Source: an uncultured Pseudomonadota bacterium
GTDB lineage: Bacteria > Vulcanimicrobiota > Vulcanimicrobiia > Eremiobacterales > Eremiobacteraceae
Direction of reading: 5' to 3'
Length of the DNA: 64,000 bases
NCBI GenBank assembly: GCA_963736005.1
Contig: CAVTNB010000003.1
Location: 352,001-416,000 of the forward strand
A model generated the notes under the pieces. That model saw only the letters and a list, made by a program, of their open reading frames with translations. It was not told the DNA's origin and made no database searches. Both the position numbers and the translations under genes were made by a program. This document shows, one piece after another, positions 1 through 40,808 of this stretch (positions are counted from its first letter, which is position 1; the number at the start of each line of letters is the position of its first letter).

Positions 1-895
1 GGCGTTCGTCGAATTTTTCGCGCATCGCGCGGACTGGCGCCTGATCGCCGCGCAGGCCAGCCAGCGCTGCTTTCTGGGTGATTGAGGAAGGTCCGGACGT
101 CGAGTGGCTTTGCAGTTCGGACATCGCCTTAGCGAGGGGTCTGGGAGACGCCGTATATCCAAGCCGCCAGCCCGTCATGGCAAATGCCTTCGAAAAACCG
201 TTGACCGTCACCGTGCGGTCGCGCAAGTCAGGGCTAAGTGCCGCGATGCTGATTGCTTGGGCTCCGTCGTAGGTGAGCCGCTCGTAGATCTCGTCGCTGA
301 TGATGGTCAGGTTGTGCCGGGCGGCCGTGTCAGCAATCGCCTGGAGGTGCTCGCGCGCGTACACAACGCCCGTCGGATTGCTTGGGTTGCAAATGGCAAT
401 CGCCTTGGTCCTGCCGGTGATCGCGTTGTCGATCATCGATGGCTGCAGTTCGAAGGACGTGCTTGCATCGGTGTTGATGATAACCGGCGTTCCGCCAGAG
501 ATTTTTACCATCTCCGGGTAGCTCACCCAATATGGCGCTTGAATGATGACTTCGTCACCAGGGTCGAGCAACACCATGAAGATGTTGAAGAGCGACTGCT
601 TCGCGCCGTTGGAAACGACAATCTCATCGGCCGCGTACTCCAGGTTGTTCTCGCGCCGGAGCTTATCTACGATAGCCTCGCGCAACTCGACGATGCCAGC
701 AGCCGCAGTGTACTTTGTAAAGTTTTCATTGATCGCCGCGATGCCACCGCTCTTTGCCGTCTCTGGAGTGTTCAGATCGGGTTCGCCGACGCTGAGGTTG
801 ACGACATCGACTCCCTCGGCGGCGAGCTTCTTGGCACGTCCGTCAATAGCCATCGTGGGCGAAGGAGAGAGATTCTTCGCGCGTTGATTCAGCAT
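1..895 (-). CDS. aspC: PLP-dependent aminotransferase class I/II (aspartate aminotransferase-like); runs off the window start
   Basis: Minus-strand translation from ATG at 895 reads MLNQRAKNLSPSPTMAIDGRAKKLAAEGVDVVNLSVGEPDLNTP, the typical AspAT N-terminus; absent from the ORF track because it is truncated. Confidence 0.85.
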   Translation of the reverse strand, partial: MLNQRAKNLSPSPTMAIDGRAKKLAAEGVDVVNLSVGEPDLNTPETAKSGGIAAINENFTKYTAAAGIVELREAIVDKLRRENNLEYAADEIVVSNGAKQSLFNIFMVLLDPGDEVIIQAPYWVSYPEMVKISGGTPVIINTDASTSFELQPSMIDNAITGRTKAIAICNPSNPTGVVYAREHLQAIADTAARHNLTIISDEIYERLTYDGAQAISIAALSPDLRDRTVTVNGFSKAFAMTGWRLGYTASPRPLAKAMSELQSHSTSGPSSITQKAALAGLRGDQAPVRAMREKFDER

Positions 896-27220: not shown

Positions 27221-29833
27221 TTAGATTTCGAGGTTGAGAAACGTCTCGACTACTTTTGGGTCGAACTGCGTACCCGAGCAGGCCTTGAGCTCGTCCTTCG
27301 CTTCGTCGCGCGTTTTCTTGGGGCGATAGGGACGATCGCTGGTCATGGCCACGTAGGCTTCGATCACCGAGAGAATCCTGGAAAGCCGCGGGATGTCTTC
27401 TCCCGCGAGGCCCTGCGGGTAACCACTCCCGTCGTAGCGCTCCTGATGATGGCGAACCGTGGTAGCAATCGCTTCGCAGTCGCGCAAGCTGCTCAGCATC
27501 TGGTAGGCAAAATCCGGATGCTTTTTGATAATCTCATAGTCTTCTTTTTCCAGCTTACCAGGTTTACTGAGAATGAGGCCGGGGATGGCAAGCTCGCCGA
27601 TGTCGAGCAAGGCTGCCGAGCACAAGAGCACGTGGCGCTGGTGGTCGTCCATCTCGATCGCTGTGGCATACTTCGCCGCCAGATGATTGACTTTGATCAA
27701 CTGTTCCCGTTTCGTGCGCCCTGCGTTGGCTAGGGCCGCGATGAATGCAGCAAACGGCTGCAGCTCGCCTTCGAGCGATCCGATGAGGTCATCTGTCTTG
27801 ACGGCTTGCTGGGCCTCGCCACGCTTCGCTGCGTAGAGCGCCGCGTCGGCGACGCCGACGAGATCTTCTCGGCCCTCGCATTCGTCAGGATAGACGGCAA
27901 CACCGATGGAGAGCCGAACCGGGATTGACTGGCGCTCAGTGATGTCAAACGGCTTTCGCGCAATCTCCGCATTGAGCCGTTCCGCAAATCGCCACGCCGC
28001 CTCCCGATCGGTGTCGGGTAGTATCGCGCAAAACTCATCCCCACCGTAGCGCCCAATCCCATCGGTCTCTCGCGCGACGCGGCGCAGTACTGCCGCCACT
28101 TCTTTGAGGACACGGTCGCCCACCGGGTGGCCGTACGTGTCGTTGAACGCCTTGAACTTGTCGATGTCCATCATCAACAGCGACACCTTGGCGTTGGAGC
28201 GTCGAGCGCGCTTCAACTCGTACGCCAGCCGCTCCTGAACGGAACGCTGATGCGGCAATCCAGTCAGCGCATCGTTGTCGGCAAGCTCCTTGGCGCGTTC
28301 GTACAACTTGGCATTTTGCACCGCGACGGAAGACTGCTCTGCGATGGCGTTGAGCAGTTTGAGGTGCTGCTCGTCGTATGCATGGGCGATGTACGATTGG
28401 ATTGAAATCGCACCGATGATGCGGCCTCCCACGTTCATGGGAACGGCAACAATGGATTGCACCGTGGTTGGACCTTCGCCCACTCTTTTGGTGCTGAGCT
28501 TATCGCGCTCTTCGGTGTTTCGCACTAAAATCGGCTTGCCGCTTTCGATCACACGACCGACGATCGTTCCTTCAATGCTGTGCTTGGCAGGTGGGAAAAC
28601 GCGTTCGCCCTCGACTAGGTATTCGAGCGTCACGTCGCTCTCGCCGTCACCCGAACGCAACGCCACAAAAAACAACGGCGCATCGATGACTCGGCGCACT
28701 TGTTCGTGAATTTTTGCAAACACGCGATGCAGATCGAGCTCGGATGAAACGGCACTCGCTACTTCAACGAGCAAGTTGAGATCGGCAGCGCGCTGGGTAC
28801 TGGCTCGCAAGTTCTTCAGGTTTTCCACCGCGACCGCTGCTTGTTCCGAAATAGCTGTGAGCAAATCGCAATCCGTCTCGGAATACGAGTTGGCGCGCGG
28901 GCTTTGGACCGAAAGAACGCCGAGCACTCGATCGCCGAGCTTCATTGGAACGATGAGTGCCGAGGCCGGGTCCTGCGCATCGCCCAGCGTGACCGATCGG
29001 ACGGTGTTCCAATCTTCAGGCCGGCGGATGATCACTGGATGTCCTGACTTGAGGACATCTCCCGAAACGGTGGTCAGCGGTAGCCGTACGCGTTCTACCG
29101 AGCGGCGCCCGAACTCCGCGCTGTATTCAATCTCAAGCTGATCGCCATCTGGGGTCAGCAGGGCGGCCACAAAGAGAGACGCGTCCATCACCCGTCCCAC
29201 CAAAGTGTGGAACTTTGCGAACAAATCGCTTAGGTCCAAGCCGCTCGAGAGGGCACGCGCTGTTTCGAGCAACAGATTCAGCGCCTTCGCGCCGTGCTCG
29301 CAGAGCGCTGCTTCACGAGTGATTTCGAGATCTTGCCCGACGTGCACGGTGACCGTCTCCAGCAGCGTGCCATCGTAAGCTGCCAGCGGCGAGTCAGATT
29401 GAATGACGCAAAAACCATTGATTGCCCCTGCGACGCGAATGGGTGCGACCATTGCAAAGGCAAGGCGGCCTCGCGTGCTCCGCGCCGCGGGGTCGATATT
29501 GCGAACGCCCGCCACGGTGGGGAGTTCGCAGAGCTGCTCGGACGCCAACGCAAAGGCCAACGTCTGCGCATCAAGCGGCTCGGCGACTTGGAAGTTTCGA
29601 TCGGCATGATAGTGATAGTGGACGGGACTTGTCACGTCTCGATCGATCGTCGCGATCGTGAGGCGCCGAATGCCGCGCGCAAACAAAAGCTCGTGCAGCG
29701 CGGCAAACGCCTTCTCGCCGGTGGAATGGGCGAAGATCGTTGCCACGCGCCCAAGGGCACGCAGTTGCTCTGCGGCGGGATCGGGTTGGCTTGCCGCAGC
29801 GGTGGGCTCGTCGATGCTCAGGTGGTGTTCCAA
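27221..29833 (-). CDS. GAF-GAF-GGDEF-HD-GYP c-di-GMP signalling protein
   Basis: Tandem GAF domains, DALTGL, DIDKFKAFNDTYGH, RETD I-site, GGDEF, HHQERYDGSGYP, RPYR; start codon uncertain. Confidence 0.92.
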   Translation of the reverse strand: MEHHLSIDEPTAAASQPDPAAEQLRALGRVATIFAHSTGEKAFAALHELLFARGIRRLTIATIDRDVTSPVHYHYHADRNFQVAEPLDAQTLAFALASEQLCELPTVAGVRNIDPAARSTRGRLAFAMVAPIRVAGAINGFCVIQSDSPLAAYDGTLLETVTVHVGQDLEITREAALCEHGAKALNLLLETARALSSGLDLSDLFAKFHTLVGRVMDASLFVAALLTPDGDQLEIEYSAEFGRRSVERVRLPLTTVSGDVLKSGHPVIIRRPEDWNTVRSVTLGDAQDPASALIVPMKLGDRVLGVLSVQSPRANSYSETDCDLLTAISEQAAVAVENLKNLRASTQRAADLNLLVEVASAVSSELDLHRVFAKIHEQVRRVIDAPLFFVALRSGDGESDVTLEYLVEGERVFPPAKHSIEGTIVGRVIESGKPILVRNTEERDKLSTKRVGEGPTTVQSIVAVPMNVGGRIIGAISIQSYIAHAYDEQHLKLLNAIAEQSSVAVQNAKLYERAKELADNDALTGLPHQRSVQERLAYELKRARRSNAKVSLLMMDIDKFKAFNDTYGHPVGDRVLKEVAAVLRRVARETDGIGRYGGDEFCAILPDTDREAAWRFAERLNAEIARKPFDITERQSIPVRLSIGVAVYPDECEGREDLVGVADAALYAAKRGEAQQAVKTDDLIGSLEGELQPFAAFIAALANAGRTKREQLIKVNHLAAKYATAIEMDDHQRHVLLCSAALLDIGELAIPGLILSKPGKLEKEDYEIIKKHPDFAYQMLSSLRDCEAIATTVRHHQERYDGSGYPQGLAGEDIPRLSRILSVIEAYVAMTSDRPYRPKKTRDEAKDELKACSGTQFDPKVVETFLNLEI

Positions 29834-33177: not shown

Positions 33178-33812
33178 GTTTGTTGCACGATGAAGGGGTT
33201 CGAGCGTCGTTCGTTGCCGATCGTTGTTTGCGGACCGTGGCCTGGAATGACGGTGACATTGTCTTCGAAGGCAAGGAGCTTGGAGCGGATGGACTGCATG
33301 ATCTGGGTGAACGAACCACCCCATAAATCCGTTCGTCCTATGCCGCCGGCGAAGAGCGTGTCGCCCGATAAGATGATCGGCTCGCGTTCTTCGATGACAA
33401 AACTGACGCTGCCCGGCGTGTGGCCCGGCGTGTGAACGGCGCGCAGCGCGTGGCGCCCAAATTGCAGAGGTTGGCTTTCGCGAAGATAGCTGTCGACGTC
33501 CGCCGTTGTAGGCGTGGGAACGCCAAGCCACGCCGCTTGCTCGGCGATGTTTTTGTAAAGAGGTATGTCGGCCTCGTGCATCATGATCGGCGCGCCGGTC
33601 CGCTCCTTGAGATCGGCAAGTGCTGCAACGTGATCGATATGTGCATGCGTTGCGACAATCGCGGCGAGCTTTAGATCGTGCTTGCGCAGGGCTTGATAGA
33701 TGTTTTCCACGTCACCCCCCGGATCCACCACAATCCCTGTTTTTGTCGCTTCATCGCCCAGAATGATGCAGTTGCAGGCTATCGGACCGACGGGGAAATA
33801 TCGCAAAATCAT
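33174..33812 (-). CDS. MBL-fold metallo-hydrolase (glyoxalase II/YcbL-like)
   Basis: VDPGG, THAHIDH, TPGHTPG, SGDTLF..IGRTD, PGHG. Confidence 0.93.
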   Translation of the reverse strand: MILRYFPVGPIACNCIILGDEATKTGIVVDPGGDVENIYQALRKHDLKLAAIVATHAHIDHVAALADLKERTGAPIMMHEADIPLYKNIAEQAAWLGVPTPTTADVDSYLRESQPLQFGRHALRAVHTPGHTPGSVSFVIEEREPIILSGDTLFAGGIGRTDLWGGSFTQIMQSIRSKLLAFEDNVTVIPGHGPQTTIGNERRSNPFIVQQT

Positions 33813-33915
33813 ATGCGGCTGCAAGCTTAGTGCGCGTTGCAAAGCCACCCTGCCCGCGGGCTCGGAGGTTTGCGGGTACGGCCCTGTCAAAACGCACATT
33901 GTTTTGGACGCTCAC

Positions 33916-35013
33916 ATGATACGCACGGTTGCAAGCGGCCTCGATCGCAAGCTTTTGGATTTCATCTCTAGTCCGGATGCCGGCGAGGCCGAATTCGAGC
34001 AGCTGGCGCTGGAGCTGTTTGCCTACCAGTACTCGGCAAATCAACCATATCGCAATCTGTGCGATCAACGCAACCGCACGCCGGAGCTCGTTCGCCGCTG
34101 GACCCACATTCCCGCGCTCTCAGCAGCGTCCTTCGCCGACGCTCGCATCGCTTGCTTTCCGCCCGAGCGCGCGCGCTTGCGTTTCGTTTCCAGCGGCACA
34201 ACGAGCGAGGGAGAGCGAGCGTCGGTGCACGAGCTTGAGAACGCCGTGCTGTACGATGCTTCGCTTGCGAATCATTTCCGGCGATGCGTTCTGCCAGATC
34301 GCGAAAAGATCGAGATGCTGCTGCTCTCCCCTTCCTTTGAAGACGCGCCTCAGTCGTCGCTTGCCTACATGCTTTCCCGCCTCTACGAACGATACGCAAG
34401 CGGCGGTGACTTCTTCGTTCGGCACGGCAGTCTCGACTCGCAGGGGATCGCCAGCACGTTGCGCTCGGCTCGCGAGCCCGTGCTCCTTTTCGGCACGGCA
34501 TTTGCCTTCGTTCATTTCTTCGACTATTGCGACGCCGCTCGCCTCAAGTTCCAGGTTCCCCCGGGTAGTCGCATCGTCGAAACAGGCGGCTTCAAGGGAA
34601 AATCTCGATCGATCGAACGAGATGAATTTCATCGGGTACTCTCGTCGACATTTGGCATTTCGCCAGAGTGGTGCATTTCCGAGTACGGCATGTGCGAGCT
34701 CGGCAGTCAATGGTATGACGCGAGTCTGAGCGACAAGCTCGCGGGTCGTCCGCCGCGCCTGGCGTTCAAAGTCGGGCCCCATTGGACTCGGCACCTGGTC
34801 GTCGATCCTGTTAGCGCGGAGCCGCTGCCCGAAGGCTCCGTAGGATTGCTCCAAGTATTCGATTTGAGCAATCGAGGATCGGTGGCAGCAGTGCTCACAG
34901 GCGATCTGGTCAGGGGCGAAGGCGAGGGCTTTACGTACGTAAGCCGCTCGCAGGCCGCTCCGCCAAAGGGTTGCAGCATCACCGTCGATTCGATGCTTCG
35001 GTCTCATGCCTAA
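33916..35013 (+). CDS. LuxE-like acyl-protein synthetase
   Basis: FAYQY..N..Y, FVSSGTT, ETGGFKG, SEYGMCEL, LTGDL, C-terminal KGCS. Confidence 0.85.
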   Translation: MIRTVASGLDRKLLDFISSPDAGEAEFEQLALELFAYQYSANQPYRNLCDQRNRTPELVRRWTHIPALSAASFADARIACFPPERARLRFVSSGTTSEGERASVHELENAVLYDASLANHFRRCVLPDREKIEMLLLSPSFEDAPQSSLAYMLSRLYERYASGGDFFVRHGSLDSQGIASTLRSAREPVLLFGTAFAFVHFFDYCDAARLKFQVPPGSRIVETGGFKGKSRSIERDEFHRVLSSTFGISPEWCISEYGMCELGSQWYDASLSDKLAGRPPRLAFKVGPHWTRHLVVDPVSAEPLPEGSVGLLQVFDLSNRGSVAAVLTGDLVRGEGEGFTYVSRSQAAPPKGCSITVDSMLRSHA

Positions 35014-36211
35014 CGCCCAACCAATTGCCAGTGCCCGCACAACGGCGCTGTTGGCAGGAGCGGCGCAATGGCGCCATCGGAATTCCCACGTCCGCATCGC
35101 AGCGCGCGAAGCGCTGCGCGACGGGGAGTGGCCTGCCCAAGTCGTCGAGCTGGCACTCGACAACGTCCTGCTCGATGACCAAGTGCTGAGCGAATACGGC
35201 AGCGGACCTGGCAGCAGCGGACTCTGTAGCAGTGGACCTGTAGTGGGCGACTGTCAAGTCGCCCGCCGAAACTCAATGCTTGCCATCCTCCCAGGCAACG
35301 TCTTGGGCCCGGCGATTGCCACGGCATATTGCGCCGCCGCGGCGGGCGCGACCATCATGCTCAAGTCTTCGAGCCGAGAACTGTGCCTTGCGAATATCGT
35401 CGCAGAACAATTCGAATCGCTCGGTCCGCCAATCGCAGGCACGCTGAAGGCGCTGCGATGGACCGGAGGTGACGAGGATTTCGAATCTAAGATTTTTCCG
35501 CTAGCTTCCCGGATTATCGTTTTTGGCGACGACGCAACAATCGCCGACGTCAAGCGTCGTGCCCCCAGCAACGTCACCGTTGTGGGGTACGGCAGCGCCT
35601 ACAGCCTCGGCTACGTTCCGGCCGGCAGCGACATGGCTGCTGCTGCCAAGGCCGCCGCAACGGACGTCGCATTGTTCGATCAGCGTGGATGCCTCTCACC
35701 GCAAACGATCTATGTCGAGGGCGACGATTCAAAGGCGATCCTGTTCGCGCATGCGTTGAGCGGCGCTCTGGCCCGGGTTGGCCGTGCTCTTCCGCGTGGG
35801 CAGGCGGGCGGCGCCGAAAAGGCGGCGGTCGCGGAGTTCATACGGCGGCTCATGGTGAGAGCACTCGCTCCCAAGACGCATGCTCTCGACACGGTGATCG
35901 TCGGACCCGATATTGATGGAATCCCCGAATTTGTCGTTGGTGCTGAAGCGTTCTCCGCGCCGACGTGCGCCGGATTCGGAAGAATCGTGGTGGTGAAGCC
36001 GGTCCACAGCCCCTCCGACGCTGCTGGAGCTGCAAAGACCTTGGGTCATCGTCTGGACTCGATCGGCGTCGCTTCGGCGTTGAGCCCGCAACTCCGCGGC
36101 GCATTCGCCAACTGCGGTGCGTCCCGCCTTTGCTCGCTGGGAGAGATGCAGCGTCCGCCACTTGGCTATCGCCCGAAGATATCGGACTTCGCGCTCGAGG
36201 ACTCCGAATGA
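35006..36211 (+). CDS. LuxC-like acyl-CoA reductase
   Basis: ILPGNV, LKSSS, WTGGD, VFGDDATI, DVALFDQRGCLSPQ (catalytic Cys region), GASRLCSLGEMQRP. Confidence 0.82.
   Translation: MPNAQPIASARTTALLAGAAQWRHRNSHVRIAAREALRDGEWPAQVVELALDNVLLDDQVLSEYGSGPGSSGLCSSGPVVGDCQVARRNSMLAILPGNVLGPAIATAYCAAAAGATIMLKSSSRELCLANIVAEQFESLGPPIAGTLKALRWTGGDEDFESKIFPLASRIIVFGDDATIADVKRRAPSNVTVVGYGSAYSLGYVPAGSDMAAAAKAAATDVALFDQRGCLSPQTIYVEGDDSKAILFAHALSGALARVGRALPRGQAGGAEKAAVAEFIRRLMVRALAPKTHALDTVIVGPDIDGIPEFVVGAEAFSAPTCAGFGRIVVVKPVHSPSDAAGAAKTLGHRLDSIGVASALSPQLRGAFANCGASRLCSLGEMQRPPLGYRPKISDFALEDSE
35199..35264 (+). repeat. REP-derived in-frame insertion inside the luxC-like CDS
   Basis: Three truncated family-C units (gcagcggacct; gcagcagcggactct; gtagcagtggacct) plus a full family-D unit gtagtgggcgactgtcaagtcgccc. 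Confidence 0.75.
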
Positions 36212-37572
36212 GCGCTCGAACGTTCGGAACGCAACCGGGCAAGATCAAAGTCAAGCCGCCAGGTCCAAAGAGTCGGCGTCTGACCGTGGAGCTGCGTCGC
36301 TACGAAAGCCGCAACGTCACCTTCGTTAACAAAGACTTTCCTATCTTTTTCTCCCAAGCAGCCGGTGCGAATGTCGTTGACGTTGACGAGAACGTTTACG
36401 TGGACCTCACCGGCTTTTTTGGCGTGGCGGCGACAGGCCACAGCAACGAGCGCGTGGCCGACGCGATTGGGAACCAAGCTCATCGCTTGCTCCATGGCAT
36501 GGGCGATGTGTATCCGACGGAGAGCAAAGTTGCGCTGGCGCGCGAGCTGTGCAAACTGACGCCGGGCAAAGGGAACAAGCGGGTCATCTTTGCCTCAACC
36601 GGGGCTGAGGCAGTTGAATCCGCGTTGAAGACAGCGGCGATTGCCACCGGCAAGCCCGGTGTCTTGTGTTTCACGGGTGCGTACCACGGCCTCACCTACG
36701 GGGCGCTTTCGGTTACGGACCGGGATTTGTTCCGCGCTCCGTTCTCCGATCAGCTCGGCCATTTCAGCCACAGAGTGGACTTTCCGTATTGTTACCGCTG
36801 CCCGCTGGGGCTCCGGTATCCATCGTGTAAGGTTGCGTGCCTTGACTTCGTTCGCAGCGCGCTCGAAAGGTTGGGCCCTTCTGAGATCGGAGCGGTCATC
36901 GTTGAGCCCATGCAAGGGCGGGGTGGGGAGATTCCTGCGCCGGACCAATGGCTACAAGAGCTGCGAACGTTCTGCGACGAGCAAGGCCTGCTGCTCATCT
37001 GCGACGAGATTTTCTCCGGGTTTGGACGTACCGGACGCTGGTTTGCCTGCGAACACGCCGGTATCGTGCCGGACATCATCTGTGTCGGCAAAGGCCTCTC
37101 ATCTGGATTTCCGATCTCCGCCTGCATCGGTAAGGCGGAGATCATGGATCGTTGGCCCGCATCGGAAGGCGAGGCAATACACACGAGCACGTTCCTCGGG
37201 CATCCTACCGGCTGCATGGCGGCGCTCGCGTCGATTGCAGAAGTGCAAGAACACAGACTCGTTGCACGAGCAGCAAAACTCGAGGGATCCGTGCGCGAGA
37301 TGCTTGTGAAGCTACAGAAAGAAAGCAAGGGGAAAATTGGCGATGTGCGCGGGCTCGGGCTCATGTGGGGGCTCGAGTGCATCAAGCGCGATGGCTCGCC
37401 CGATAAGGATCTCGCCCTCCACGTCCTGCGGGATGCGATGCAGCAGGGTGTGCTTATCTTGACCAGCGGACCTCAGGGCAACGTTCTGTCAATAACCCCT
37501 CCGCTTGTCATCACGACGGATCAGCTCGCGTTTGCGATCGACATCCTTGCAAATGCAATCAAAAAGGCCTGA
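36208..37572 (+). CDS. Class III PLP-dependent aminotransferase (GabT/ArgD superfamily)
   Basis: TGAEAVE, AYHG, VEPMQG, DEIFSGFGRTG, PDIICVGKGL, HTSTFLG, VRGLGLM; ATGA overlap with luxC. Confidence 0.93.
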   Translation: MSARTFGTQPGKIKVKPPGPKSRRLTVELRRYESRNVTFVNKDFPIFFSQAAGANVVDVDENVYVDLTGFFGVAATGHSNERVADAIGNQAHRLLHGMGDVYPTESKVALARELCKLTPGKGNKRVIFASTGAEAVESALKTAAIATGKPGVLCFTGAYHGLTYGALSVTDRDLFRAPFSDQLGHFSHRVDFPYCYRCPLGLRYPSCKVACLDFVRSALERLGPSEIGAVIVEPMQGRGGEIPAPDQWLQELRTFCDEQGLLLICDEIFSGFGRTGRWFACEHAGIVPDIICVGKGLSSGFPISACIGKAEIMDRWPASEGEAIHTSTFLGHPTGCMAALASIAEVQEHRLVARAAKLEGSVREMLVKLQKESKGKIGDVRGLGLMWGLECIKRDGSPDKDLALHVLRDAMQQGVLILTSGPQGNVLSITPPLVITTDQLAFAIDILANAIKKA

Positions 37573-37582
37573 GCACTCAGCG

Positions 37583-37611
37583 TTATCCACAACAATCAAA
37601 TGCTATCCACA
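37583..37611 (+). promoter_or_regulatory. Two DnaA-box-like sites in direct orientation
   Basis: TTATCCACA (37583-37591, consensus) and CTATCCACA (37603-37611). Confidence 0.6.
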
Positions 37612-37641
37612 ATTTTCTTTCAAAAGCGAACAACCGTTCAC

Positions 37642-37670
37642 TTGCACAATGGGAGTGCATTGAGTATACT
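37642..37670 (+). promoter_or_regulatory. Sigma70-type promoter
   Basis: TTGCAC-17 nt-TATACT. Confidence 0.7.
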
Positions 37671-37676
37671 GCCACT

Positions 37677-37927
37677 ACACCGACCGCGGTGCCGAGTGAA
37701 GTCAGCAACAACGGATGCCACGATTCGAAGCGTGGAGAGCTGAAGTCCTCGGAGATGGTACCCCTACCGTTGGGGACCCGGCTCACGCTGGGGGATGGCT
37801 CTGGGGATCGCGTCCCAGTTAAGCCCTACAACCGAACCTACTGACTAGAGAGTAAGGATCGGAAGGTACGGCGAAAATGTCATCGACCTAACAGTCAACG
37901 ACCGAGCTCCGCTCGGTCGTTACTGTT
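37677..37927 (+). ncRNA. Candidate stand-alone structured non-coding RNA, family unassigned
   Basis: Own promoter and terminal hairpin, no downstream plus-strand gene, many complementary segments (AGTCAG/CTGACT, CAACGG/CCGTTG, CCACG/CGTGG, CTGGG/CCCAG). Confidence 0.55.
37890..37927. terminator. Long hairpin, probable bidirectional terminator
   Basis: aacagt-c-aacgaccgagc-tcc-gctcggtcgtt-actgtt. Confidence 0.7.
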
Positions 37928-37939
37928 GTGGGGGTCCTT

Positions 37940-39391
37940 TTAGCGTGAATCTACCCGGAACGTCAGTGTTGCCTGGCGTCCGGCCGCCACCGGAATCATC
38001 CACACAACCGTTGAGCTCGAGGTCTTTTGGTGGGGCAGCGTCTCACTTGCGATCTGCCACAGGCCGCTGAGCTGCTCCTCATAGCGCAACACGATCGGCT
38101 TACTTTTGGCATTGCTGACCGTCACGCGATAGTCGGTGACATATTCAGTTCTATTGTAGGGATGTGGGATCTCTTGGTAATTCGTTTGAACGCGGCTCAC
38201 GTGAACGTCAAATGATGGACCGAGGTCGAGCTGCACGTGCGCTTTGCGGGGCGTGTTGTCAATGGCATTTTCGCCGATGAAGACTGGTTCGCCGGACTCA
38301 TCGTTTTTGTACATATGAAAGACCCCACTGGGTAGGGGCACGCCGAGCCCGTGTCCATCGTTGTCAAATTCAAGCGTCACCTCAACCGGGACCGCTTGCT
38401 CCGAGCCCTGGCTTTGAAAGTCGTTGGCGCTTACCGATGATGAGAAGACCTGTTGCACGGGGACCTCGCGAGCAAAAAGCAAGAGGGTTTGCTTGGTCTC
38501 ACCGGTTCGCAGCGAGGTCCGCCGGGGCAGACTGTATTCGTAAAATTCAAAGACCGCCTGGCGTGTGGCACGATTGGTGTTAGCTGCGTAGACGTCAGCG
38601 GCGGCCTGCGCGCGCACCGCACCAAGCATTTTCACTTCACCTGGCTGCGCGCGCTGCACGCTCCCGGCGACGAGCCGAACGGTTGCATCGTCAAAGTCCA
38701 TGCCGCTGTCGTTGTGCAAAGTGATGAAGGCGTCGATGTCGAGATGGTCGCCTCCGGCGTTGAGCCTGGCCACATAGTCGGCGGCCCAAGACAGGCCACT
38801 TGTGAGGTACCCGAGGGCGATGGGTCGTTGTGCGGCGGTTGGACTTTCAAAATCAGCCAAGAAATCGGGCGTCAGTCGAATGATTGGCAGCGTCGCATAC
38901 ACGATGCGGGAATTGGGCGGCAAGCTCGTTTCGAAGCGATCCTTGAACTTGAGGATCGGGCCGCTCGCACTGATCACCACCGCCGTCTCTTTTGTCTCCT
39001 TCCCCGTCATTGGTTCGTCGTGGATAACGGTCACCGTGTGGCCGACAGCTCGCGCAAAAATCGCGTCTGGCGAAAGAACAGCGGTTTCAAAATTCTGCTC
39101 CTGCACAAGGATCGGCACCTGGGTGCCGAGATCCGAAAGAAAGGCTGTCTCTGGTGACATCTGCGGTGAGACGTCGTCAAAAACGATTCGATTCTCGCCC
39201 CGCTCGACATTGAGGAGCCTGACATCCCGAACAAGTGCGAAGTCCCCGTAGACGGTGACCGTCAGGGATTGACGTTGCGCTGCGCTCGTGTGGCGTTCGG
39301 GAATCACAGCGAGCGCGCGCGGTGCATTGACAAGCGACGCTACCATCGCGCTCATAATCGAGAGGAGCACAAACACCGCTGTCCTCTTCAT
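37940..39391 (-). CDS. Secreted DUF4139-domain protein
   Basis: Signal peptide; LTVTVY..FALVRDVR, YLTSGLSWAADY, RLVAG, LGVPLPSG, FIGENAIDNTP; GGAGGA RBS. Confidence 0.85.
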   Translation of the reverse strand: MKRTAVFVLLSIMSAMVASLVNAPRALAVIPERHTSAAQRQSLTVTVYGDFALVRDVRLLNVERGENRIVFDDVSPQMSPETAFLSDLGTQVPILVQEQNFETAVLSPDAIFARAVGHTVTVIHDEPMTGKETKETAVVISASGPILKFKDRFETSLPPNSRIVYATLPIIRLTPDFLADFESPTAAQRPIALGYLTSGLSWAADYVARLNAGGDHLDIDAFITLHNDSGMDFDDATVRLVAGSVQRAQPGEVKMLGAVRAQAAADVYAANTNRATRQAVFEFYEYSLPRRTSLRTGETKQTLLLFAREVPVQQVFSSSVSANDFQSQGSEQAVPVEVTLEFDNDGHGLGVPLPSGVFHMYKNDESGEPVFIGENAIDNTPRKAHVQLDLGPSFDVHVSRVQTNYQEIPHPYNRTEYVTDYRVTVSNAKSKPIVLRYEEQLSGLWQIASETLPHQKTSSSTVVWMIPVAAGRQATLTFRVDSR

Positions 39392-39539
39392 ACAAAATCC
39401 TCCTCGGCCAATACGCAGGCGAAGGGCTGTCAAATGACGAGCTTCGCGGCTCCCTTGGGCCGTCCTTGGTCGTCGCTCGGTGCTCTTTTCGTCGAACCCG
39501 TGGCACGGAACTTGTCGTATCCGCGACAAACAATCGCGC

Positions 39540-40808
39540 GTGGCGACGACGACAGAACAAAACCCATCGCAAGAGAGCGAATCGCCGCCGGGGGCGCAGC
39601 GCTGGGGCGCGCTGGCGTACCGAGAGTACCGGCTGCTGTGGATCGGGCTCATCATCTCCAACACCGGCAGTTGGATGGCTACTTTAGCTCAAGGATGGCT
39701 TGTCGTTGAATTGGCGCCGCGCCCGGCCTTGGCGCCGTTTTACCTTGGCATCATCGGCTTCACCCGCGCCATCCCCGCTCTGTTGCTGTCCGGAGTGGCG
39801 GGCACGATCGCCGACCGAGTCGACCGGCGACGCCTCTTAATCGTCAGTCAGGTCGTCCTTGGACTCGCTGCCCTCGCGCTGGCCATTTTGGCACAGACGC
39901 GTACGGTACAAATATGGCAGGTCATCCTGCTCGCCGGCTTGTCCGCGTGTGCGCTCACCTTTGACGCGCCCACGAGGCAATCGATGGTGCCCCTTCTTGT
40001 TGGACCACGCGAGCTGATGAATGCGATCGGACTCAACTCCGCCGCCTTTAATGGACCGGGCATCATCGGCCCAGCCATCGGCGGAATTTTGGTGAGTACC
40101 GTGGGCGTCAGCGCCACATTCTATCTCAACGCACTTTCATATGTCGCGGTTATTTTTGCGCTCTTGCTCATGACTCCCAAGCCGCCCGTACAGGTTGCCA
40201 AGCGATTGGGTCTGTGGGAAGAACTCGTCGATGGGTTGCGTTACGTGCGCGGGCAGCCTGCAATTCTTGCGCTCTTCTTGCTCGCGCTGCTCGTCTCAAT
40301 TGTGGGGCGGCCTTACATACAGCTGCTGCCCGCTTTTGTGAAAGCGACGATTCAGGGTGGGCCGGATACCCTCGGTGTGCTCATGGCGGGATCCGGGGTT
40401 GGCGCGTTGGCAGGTTCGATTGCCGTCGCATTCATCGGAACTCGCCATCACCGAGGACGGATCGCGACTGCTTGTGCGACGCTCGCGGGGGTGGCGCTCT
40501 TTGGATTCTCGCTGACGAAGACGACGCTGATCGCAGCAAGCGTGCTCGTTGCGCTCGGAGCAAGCATCAATCTGTTTATGGGCATGACCAACACCTTGCT
40601 GCAGCTTCACACCGCCCTTGAAATGCGCGGTCGCGTGATGGCGCTCTACACGATGATCTTTTTGGGCTTCATGCCCTTGGGCTCGTGGCTGCTTGGCTCG
40701 ATCGCGACGCTGACGACCTTGCCGCTGACCCTGGCGGCTGCCGGCATTCTCGTTGCGCTAGCCGGGCTCGCGGTGAGTCGCCTTCCGGGCCCTCGCGACC
40801 TGGCATAA
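39540..40808 (+). CDS. MFS transporter
   Basis: YRLLWIGLIISNTGSWM, GTIADRVDRRR motif A, about 12 TM segments, RGRVMALY. Confidence 0.93.
   Translation: MATTTEQNPSQESESPPGAQRWGALAYREYRLLWIGLIISNTGSWMATLAQGWLVVELAPRPALAPFYLGIIGFTRAIPALLLSGVAGTIADRVDRRRLLIVSQVVLGLAALALAILAQTRTVQIWQVILLAGLSACALTFDAPTRQSMVPLLVGPRELMNAIGLNSAAFNGPGIIGPAIGGILVSTVGVSATFYLNALSYVAVIFALLLMTPKPPVQVAKRLGLWEELVDGLRYVRGQPAILALFLLALLVSIVGRPYIQLLPAFVKATIQGGPDTLGVLMAGSGVGALAGSIAVAFIGTRHHRGRIATACATLAGVALFGFSLTKTTLIAASVLVALGASINLFMGMTNTLLQLHTALEMRGRVMALYTMIFLGFMPLGSWLLGSIATLTTLPLTLAAAGILVALAGLAVSRLPGPRDLA

Follow-up and report, generated by a model that had tools for sequence, protein, structure and literature searches.

A structured RNA gene in a 367-bp gap

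We analysed a 64,000-nucleotide window of contig CAVTNB010000003.1 from an uncultured bacterium of the family Eremiobacteraceae (the window is this whole stretch of DNA, and positions refer to it unless another contig is named). Our subject is a 367-bp gap at 37573-37939, with a class-III aminotransferase gene on its left (+ strand, ending at 37572) and a DUF4139 gene on its right (− strand). An original prediction, made from the letters of the DNA, had described this gap with its two flanking genes, a TTGCAC-17-TATACT promoter and a long terminal hairpin; all of these are present in the sequence, the promoter at 37642-37670 and the hairpin at 37890-37927. It had also offered two identities, a divergent 6S-like RNA or an undescribed lineage-specific RNA, and the second is the one that stands: the gap has no Rfam match at E ≤ 10, and it shows strong covariation, a one-family range and a transcript contig. 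The gap holds a structured, expressed RNA gene on the + strand, and it is near certain that a new structured RNA family exists. The folded RNA is about 250 nt long, and its hosts are uncultured soil bacteria of one family, Eremiobacteraceae. The RNA gene and the parts of its fold are listed below.

37677-37930, + strand: RNA gene (covariance model match of 271.5 bits; a metatranscriptome contig begins at 37680)
37678-37682 / 37687-37691, + strand: P1 hairpin, CACCG/CGGTG with loop ACCG, invariant
37692-37696 / 37748-37752, + strand: P2, CCGAG/CTCGG, enclosing a conserved internal loop and P2a (3 of 5 pairs compensatory)
37710-37714, + strand: candidate 5′ half of a pseudoknot, AACGG, pairing with CCGTT at 37767-37771 in the P4 loop
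37718-37723 / 37730-37735, + strand: P2a hairpin, CCACGA/GCGTGG (5 of 6 pairs compensatory)
37757-37759 / 37886-37888, + strand: P3, GGT/ACC, closing the 3′ domain (covarying pair 95:238)
37761-37764 / 37772-37775, + strand: P4 hairpin, CCCC/GGGG, loop bearing CCGTT (carries compensatory changes)
37777-37782 / 37787-37792, + strand: P5 hairpin, CCCGGC/GCTGGG (4 of 6 pairs compensatory)
37794-37798 / 37880-37884, + strand: P6, GATGG/TCATC, enclosing P7, P8 and P9 (2 of 5 pairs compensatory)
37801-37806 / 37813-37818, + strand: P7 hairpin, CTGGGG/TCCCAG (2 of 6 pairs compensatory)
within 37823-37872, + strand: P8 (GCC/GGC), P8b and a variable P9 hairpin (compensatory changes in all P8 and P8b pairs and in 5 of 6 P9 pairs)
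37890-37907 / 37911-37927, + strand: terminator hairpin (9 of 10 upper pairs compensatory)

We infer the 5′ start of the RNA from the −10 element, 7-10 nt past it, and the 3′ end from the U-rich stretch that closes the terminator. The covariance model, which was built from 24 sequences, extends over 37671-37936 of the window. The + strand of 37670-37940 folds with z = −4.05, a value that none of 200 shuffles equalled, and the − strand of the gap region gave z = −2.09 against its shuffles. Nine helices arranged about two junctions make up the fold, together with a likely pseudoknot and a terminator hairpin. The latter consists of a lower stem, AACAG/CTGTT, an upper stem, ACGACCGAGC/GCTCGGTCGT, and the U-rich tail; a simple terminator scan left it unflagged.

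The original prediction had proposed that homologues be collected and tested for covariation. We obtained 54 distinct homologous sequences, in which 37 of the 71 pairs show compensatory change, as against 6-12 when the pairing partners were slid by 1-3 columns. Standard pairing occurs in 97.1% of the alignment cells, versus 33-44% in the same slid controls, and none of 500 shuffles reached the observed pairing or compensation values. Since fitting this alignment to the model biases it towards the structure, we use a MAFFT alignment as an independent check; on it, RNAalifold predicted 63 pairs, 32 of them with compensatory changes. Of the unpaired bases in the junctions, roughly half reach 90% conservation or more, and the flanks of the RNA do not align. 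Pair 95:238 of P3 is U-A in 37 sequences, C-G in 8 and U-G in 5, and pair 145:152 of P7 is G-U in 50 of 51; such G-U pairs place the RNA on the + strand. P1 is invariant and so yields no covariation evidence. The two pseudoknot strands, AACGG and CCGTT, match each other in all of 52 sequences, without any variation; the pseudoknot is likely, and its invariance leaves no covariation by which to judge it.

Several pairings had been read from the single sequence in the original prediction, with mixed outcomes. Its CCACG/CGTGG and CTGGG/CCCAG helices, which correspond to P2a and P7, and its terminal hairpin are borne out by the compensatory changes listed above. Its CAACGG/CCGTTG pairing contains the pseudoknot strands and shares their complementarity and their invariance; it is plausible as a pseudoknot, and covariation speaks neither for nor against it. 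GTGCC/GGTAC can pair in 99.2% of cells but shows no compensatory change, and it competes with the covarying helices P2 and P3. AGTCAG/CTGACT (58.3% paired) and GGCT/AGCC (73.9%) are not conserved among the homologues, and their bases belong to other, covarying helices (P6, P8 and P9). An alternative pairing of the P3/P4/P6 region, suggested by ViennaRNA alifold, was set aside, and P3, P4 and P6 were kept because they carry compensatory changes.

A 35-codon open reading frame (ORF; MPRFEAW...) without a ribosome-binding site had also been noted. The frame exists here and indeed has no such site, but it is not conserved as a frame. Among 48 distinct full-length sequences it runs for 5-7 codons in 19, 9-10 in 2, 21 in 6, 26 in 4 and 32-35 in 11; it is frameshifted, to 42-53 codons, in 6, and is full length in only 10. 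It is not a gene. An ATG or GTG within the 5′ strand of P2a is kept in 48 of 48 sequences, which is what a conserved small protein or leader peptide would have in its favour. Against this stand the variable frame length, the tolerance of one-base indels, the missing ribosome-binding site and the fact that changes in the stems are compensatory, not synonymous. A coding explanation of the conserved element is thereby refuted, and we give it next to no weight.

We compared the sequence with known RNA families, as had likewise been proposed. The 4227 covariance models of Rfam 15 gave no match at gathering scores in the whole window and no match at E ≤ 10 in 37450-38050, which places the RNA outside known families. 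When seven divergent homologous loci were searched, only SorX appeared, with two scores (25.3 and 22.2 bits) below its cut-off of 46.6, both on the terminator hairpin. A faint likeness to the c-di-AMP (ydaO) motif is unsupported, as no Rfam family matches the gap. The absence of RNase P, transfer-messenger RNA (tmRNA) and signal recognition particle (SRP) signatures from the gap was called correctly: all three RNAs sit elsewhere in the genome, above their cut-offs (260.7, 166.7 and 72.3 bits, respectively). The idea of a divergent 6S RNA, or of another housekeeping RNA, drew on a loose sequence likeness and nothing else. A bona fide 6S RNA (RF00013) lies elsewhere, on genome contig C1 (1843467-1843652; 83.8 bits, above cut-off). 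6S RNA is built as one long interrupted hairpin, and that of E. coli is co-transcribed with a downstream ORF. The gap RNA resembles 6S RNA in being an abundant small RNA with its own promoter, and differs from it in locus and in its branched, multi-junction fold. With all four housekeeping RNAs accounted for elsewhere and no Rfam match in the gap, we consider this identity refuted.

The RNA is restricted to one bacterial family. The 367 bases of the gap match DNA in 24 of 24 same-family genomes (10 genera, 74-97% identity; 21 of 21 without G008, G011 and G013, which are flagged as unpublished) and in none of 16 genomes from other families of the class. Those three genomes also enter the other tallies, and none of our claims depends on them by themselves. 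With the covariance model we found one copy per genome in 29 of 31 Eremiobacteraceae genomes, the two without a match being 72% and 55% complete. The sister family gave a single 22-bit match among 116 genomes (in G095) and a third family none in three; a sample drawn from the phylum was positive in 9 of 9 genomes of the family, and its 141 others gave only that same weak match. We took the G095 match as noise, together with 13-26-bit opposite-strand matches over the terminator. A pattern scan of 185,579 species genomes returned 26 loci, of which 23 are full-length model matches at 212-287 bits (hereafter, species loci); the other three, with titles naming Granulosicoccaceae, Friedmanniella and Actinophytocola, have no model match and were dismissed as chance hits. 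All 36 loci from a scan of metagenome contigs are model matches, six of them cut by contig ends. Public records that carry the RNA are titled Candidatus Eremiobacterota, Vulcanimicrobiota or Eremiobacteraceae. We note that three loci with a full-length copy (L042, L056 and L066) are titled uncultured proteobacterium, Candidatus Binatus and Candidatus Acidiferrales; these titles may be wrong labels, or the contigs may be misbinned. A literature search, which left supplements outside its scope, found no paper pairing Eremiobacter/WPS-2 with a riboswitch or structured RNA.

Evidence of expression comes from the assembled contigs of one soil metatranscriptome run (0.06 share of sampled words). A 194-nt contig of depth 233.7 matches 37680-37872 with two differences, and no contig of the run lies on either flanking gene. 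The original prediction had pointed to a transcript beginning near 37677; the contig starts 3 nt from our placed RNA start, which fits an independent transcript. A second contig derives from a relative.

Promoter region and conserved neighbours

The upstream part of the gap is conserved together with the RNA and contains the following elements.

37583-37591, + strand: distal DnaA-box-like 9-mer, TTATCCACA, read in the sequence
37603-37611, + strand: proximal DnaA-box-like 9-mer, CTATCCACA, 21 nt from the distal box
37612-37626, + strand: A/T-rich block, AATTTTCTTTCAAAA, conserved in the upstream alignment
37627-37640, + strand: LexA-type (Cheo-box-like) palindrome, CGAAC-AACC-GTTCA, abutting the −35 element, conserved
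37642-37647 and 37665-37670, + strand: sigma-70-type promoter read in the sequence, TTGCAC and TATACT with 17 nt between them, conserved

TATACT is kept in 51 of 52 distinct upstream sequences. A promoter scan tool reports an overlapping register, TGCACA-16-TATACT. A strict promoter scan proved insensitive, recovering the promoter of the RNA at just 4 of 20 loci, and we therefore used a relaxed pattern, TTGNNN-16..18-TANNNT, which is present at that promoter in all 20 loci tested.

Next to the −35 element, GAAC-N4-RTYY occurs in 52 of 52 distinct upstream sequences. The Cheo-box consensus of LexA is a CGAAC-N4-GTTCG-like palindrome. As a LexA operator we took such a palindrome at the promoter together with the same motif at SOS genes, and the sequence has both. 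Two LexA-type boxes lie upstream of lexA (contig C5, locus L154); on contig C1, one lies upstream of a RecA-domain gene and two beside a LigD-like ATP-dependent ligase gene (near 561633, L097, and at 132899-132967, L102; all CGAAC-N4-GTTYG palindromes). Because Cheo-box palindromes stand at the lexA, RecA-domain and ligase genes, the motifs suggest an SOS operator of Gram-positive type in this lineage. The core GAAC-N4-GTTC has 38 sites genome-wide and is not enriched. These motifs point to putative LexA (SOS) control of the RNA promoter. Small RNAs under LexA control, IstR-2 of E. coli among them, belong to toxin-antitoxin loci, are short and act by base pairing; the gap RNA is like them in having a LexA-type operator motif in its promoter and unlike them in being a 250-nt compact fold with 37 covarying pairs. 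Our literature search on LexA-controlled structured RNAs or riboswitches found nothing relevant.

The DnaA box consensus is TTATNCACA. A 9-mer fitting it, YTRTYCACA, occupies the proximal position (−68), 25 nt upstream of the LexA-type box, in 51 of 52 distinct upstream sequences, and the 52nd reads TTATGCACA. A second DnaA-type box (−89), 21 nt beyond the proximal one, is present in 24 of the 52; here it is a perfect TTATCCACA, one of only eight such sites in the 2.84-Mb genome. DnaA may thus take part in controlling the promoter, and the A/T-rich block is a possible UP element. The conserved boxes and the A/T-rich block could also be taken to mean that the locus acts at the level of DNA, as a replication origin or a site that titrates DnaA, rather than as an RNA. 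However, there are only two boxes here and no cluster of three or more, cumulative GC skew does not turn near 389.6 kb of the contig, the G-U pairs and compensatory changes reflect selection on an RNA, and a transcript contig covers the region. We regard a DNA-level element as very improbable.

The neighbouring genes are as follows.

33700-37572, + strand: LuxE-like, LuxC-like and class-III aminotransferase genes, the conserved upstream cluster
37940-39664, − strand: DUF4139 gene between the RNA and the exporter gene (Pfam match)
39480-40808, + strand: MFS_3 / DHA3-type (EntS/Mef/Tap-like) exporter gene, the conserved downstream partner, whose true start is probably later than 39480

In the 23 species loci the upstream genes are always LuxC-like and aminotransferase genes. 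Downstream, 20 of them continue with an MFS_3/DHA3 exporter gene in the orientation of the RNA, and in the remaining 3 a DUF4139 gene on the opposite strand comes first; the alignment of the exporter protein begins 5-242 nt past the model end. In whole-genome searches, 23 of 24 relatives had an orthologue of the exporter gene (53-93% identity) a short way downstream of the RNA; in the remaining one the contig ends at this point. Other families, including the sister family, have only exporter paralogues at 37-41% identity. The original prediction had argued against a cis role on the ground that no plus-strand gene lies downstream. That description holds in this window, but the argument built on it is peculiar to this genome and fails in the relatives, 23 of 24 of which have the same-strand exporter downstream. 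In genus g5 (L049, L064 and relatives), an extra, partly repeated hairpin resembling GGTCGAGTTTACTCGACC lies 10-70 nt past the terminator, before the exporter gene.

A LuxC-like gene is present in 23 of 24 family relatives and in none of 15 sister-family genomes. A bioRxiv preprint (10.1101/2025.08.11.669332) describes LuxE and LuxC as turning acids into aldehydes, which a transaminase then converts to amines. The LuxE/LuxC/aminotransferase/exporter cluster probably converts a carboxylic acid to an amine, as judged from enzyme assignments that are Pfam and NCBIfam matches well below equivalog cut-offs.

The DUF4139 gene is beside the RNA only in this genome (G000) and in G001, G003, G004 and G019, which belong to two genera. 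In the closest relative, G002, whose RNA is 97% identical, the exporter gene follows directly and there is no DUF4139 gene between them. Other genomes hold only a DUF4139 (MuiA-like) homologue of 37-45% identity, located elsewhere.

Palindromic hairpin loops

Two hairpin loops have self-complementary cores. Of 54 distinct sequences, 46 have TGCA as the P2a core and 8 have TCGA, as here; for P7, 46 of 51 have CGCG, as here, and 5 have CATG. No single-change intermediate of either core occurs among these 54 and 51 sequences. Neighbouring loop bases, and the loops of P5 and the terminator, vary freely, unlike the P2a and P7 cores. We placed the loop changes on a tree of 48 full-length distinct sequences, from which the loop columns had been left out. 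The P2a core swapped independently at least twice and the P7 core at least three times, and all five events are adjacent-base double substitutions.

Kretsch et al. (PMC12286853) present the same pattern in OLE and GOLLD (GC to CG; GGCC to GAUC) as evidence for intermolecular symmetric kissing loops, and state that adjacent bases are unable to pair within one chain. The signature used there for OLE-, ROOL- and GOLLD-type RNAs, adjacent loop-base covariation that keeps the palindrome, is present in P2a (GC to CG) and P7 (CGCG to CAUG), and switching of this kind is reported in the same paper for the symmetric kissing loops of OLE L9.3 and GOLLD L21a. Unlike those RNAs, the gap RNA is two to three times smaller, has no Rfam match, belongs to a different phylum and sits at a fixed chromosomal locus by an exporter gene, and its assembly is hypothetical. 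Oligomers of RNAs under 200 nt are reported in a 2026 preprint (10.64898/2026.07.01.735769).

The P1 hairpin (37678-37691) contains an 8-nt palindrome, ACCGCGGT, which a CG insertion in one clade (seven distinct sequences) extends to 10 nt; this palindrome may be a third self-complementary element. A contact between the P7 and P1 loops (CGCG with CGCG) was rejected by eye, because P1 is unchanged where P7 becomes CAUG. Two or three distinct self-complementary loops per copy would allow dimers, closed dihedral assemblies or chains. That the RNA might be a natural RNA-only homo-oligomer with two (perhaps three) kissing loops, induced by DNA damage through LexA and tuned by DnaA, is a tentative proposal about which we have more doubt than confidence.

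Possible roles of the RNA

We favour the reading that the RNA is a riboswitch-like leader gating the exporter gene within an SOS-controlled RNA-exporter unit, and give it a rough probability of 0.42. Transcription would begin at the RNA's own conserved promoter, with a LexA-type operator at the −35 element and one or two DnaA-type boxes upstream. The transcript would fold into the nine helices around two junctions, with the loop-loop pseudoknot, and would then reach the intrinsic terminator. RNA and exporter gene would form one transcription unit, probably SOS-controlled, because the exporter gene lies downstream on the same strand and no sigma-70-type promoter was found between them (the relaxed pattern occurs in 0 of 20 spacers, against 0.74 loci with a site in shuffles). 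Working as a riboswitch-like sensor, the folded domain would control the amount of transcription that runs through the terminator and on into the exporter gene. Its ligand might be an amine or aldehyde made by the neighbouring acid-to-aldehyde-to-amine enzymes, or a genotoxic compound.

The fold is aptamer-like and supported by covariation. Transcription-terminating riboswitch leaders, such as those of guanidine-I/ykkC and fluoride/crcB, precede transporter genes, and the gap RNA shares with such leaders a promoter, a branched pseudoknotted fold with conserved junctions, a terminator and a co-oriented efflux gene tens of bases on. It is unlike them in several respects: (i) at about 215 nt before the terminator it is much larger than the guanidine-I/ykkC and fluoride/crcB aptamers; (ii) it has no Rfam match and no antiterminator supported by covariation; and (iii) its promoter is co-conserved, and the RNA survives separation from the transporter gene.

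Further observations weigh against the leader reading. In this genome and four relatives, RNA and exporter gene are kept apart by the convergent DUF4139 gene (about 1.5 kb), and the RNA is still fully conserved: it scores 268-285 bits in the three DUF4139-bearing relatives with a full-length copy (that of G003 is cut by a contig end). Because the RNA is conserved where DUF4139 intervenes, its function does not depend on adjacency to the exporter gene. The sigma-70 pattern is also absent upstream of the exporter gene in the DUF4139 loci, and the argument from the 20 empty spacers is weakened, because the pattern must miss whatever promoter serves the exporter there. A candidate antiterminator, formed by the 3′ strand of P2 and the 5′ strand of the terminator, can pair in 95.1% of cells but shows no covariation and no excess over shuffles. 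The terminator has the length and strength of one that closes a stand-alone RNA gene, and so conserved a promoter and so high a contig depth are more usual for stable RNAs. The palindromic loops point to RNA-RNA assembly, for which riboswitches rarely have need. The expression evidence consists of contigs that carry no strand, true ends or levels, and the deep contig stops at 37872, before the terminator.

The RNA may instead be a stand-alone, abundant, trans-acting structural RNA that forms homodimers or oligomers through kissing loops of P2a (UGCA/UCGA) and P7 (CGCG/CAUG), and perhaps through the P1 palindrome. On this view the RNA would truly end at the terminator, and the exporter gene would be no more than a neighbour in the operon, transcribed through leakage. 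In keeping with this, the P2a and P7 cores stay self-complementary through five independent double substitutions, in the manner of the published OLE/GOLLD signature (PMC12286853); the RNA persists where DUF4139 separates it from the exporter gene; and a conserved promoter, a strong terminator and a deep contig limited to the RNA are all in place. Yet the loop idea is post hoc, with two of six loops picked after the alignment had been viewed, and the five events amount to modest odds, about (1/3)^5 on a crude null model. The oligomers are predicted from sequence patterns, the RNA, at about 250 nt, is smaller than OLE, ROOL and GOLLD and matches none of them, and nothing in this reading explains why 23 of 24 relatives keep it 5′ of the exporter gene. 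We rank this explanation second, as a possibility to be taken seriously but not the likelier one; it and the leader reading are not mutually exclusive. The position, terminator and conserved promoter that suggest a sensor would equally suit a leader or small RNA that acts through a protein or by base pairing, either as a platform for a protein of the cluster or the SOS response or as an antisense regulator of DUF4139, to which read-through would be antisense in five genomes. The RNA has no repeated protein-binding motifs and no long unpaired seed, its conserved bases lie in the junctions of a compact fold, and DUF4139 is missing from the locus in most genomes, so we think this explanation unlikely.

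With this work Eremiobacterota (WPS-2) gains a structured RNA family that is well supported and has no entry in Rfam 15. If the riboswitch-like leader reading is right, the RNA would be a large and complex orphan class tied to an unexplored acid-to-amine cluster and its exporter, and the ligand would reveal the product of the cluster. If the loops mediate self-assembly, it would count with the smaller of those natural RNAs whose quaternary structure has evolutionary evidence behind it and, being short, would be easily tested. A damage-induced homo-oligomer would mean a compact quaternary assembly of about 250-nt RNAs, produced alongside an efflux pump by members of an uncultured phylum. A promoter with LexA- and DnaA-type elements before a highly structured RNA is unusual and would link RNA structure to the DNA-damage response.

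Farther away in the window, about 8 kb upstream, 27221-29833 (− strand) encodes a large GAF-GAF-GGDEF-HD (GYP-type) signalling protein, a candidate for c-di-GMP turnover.

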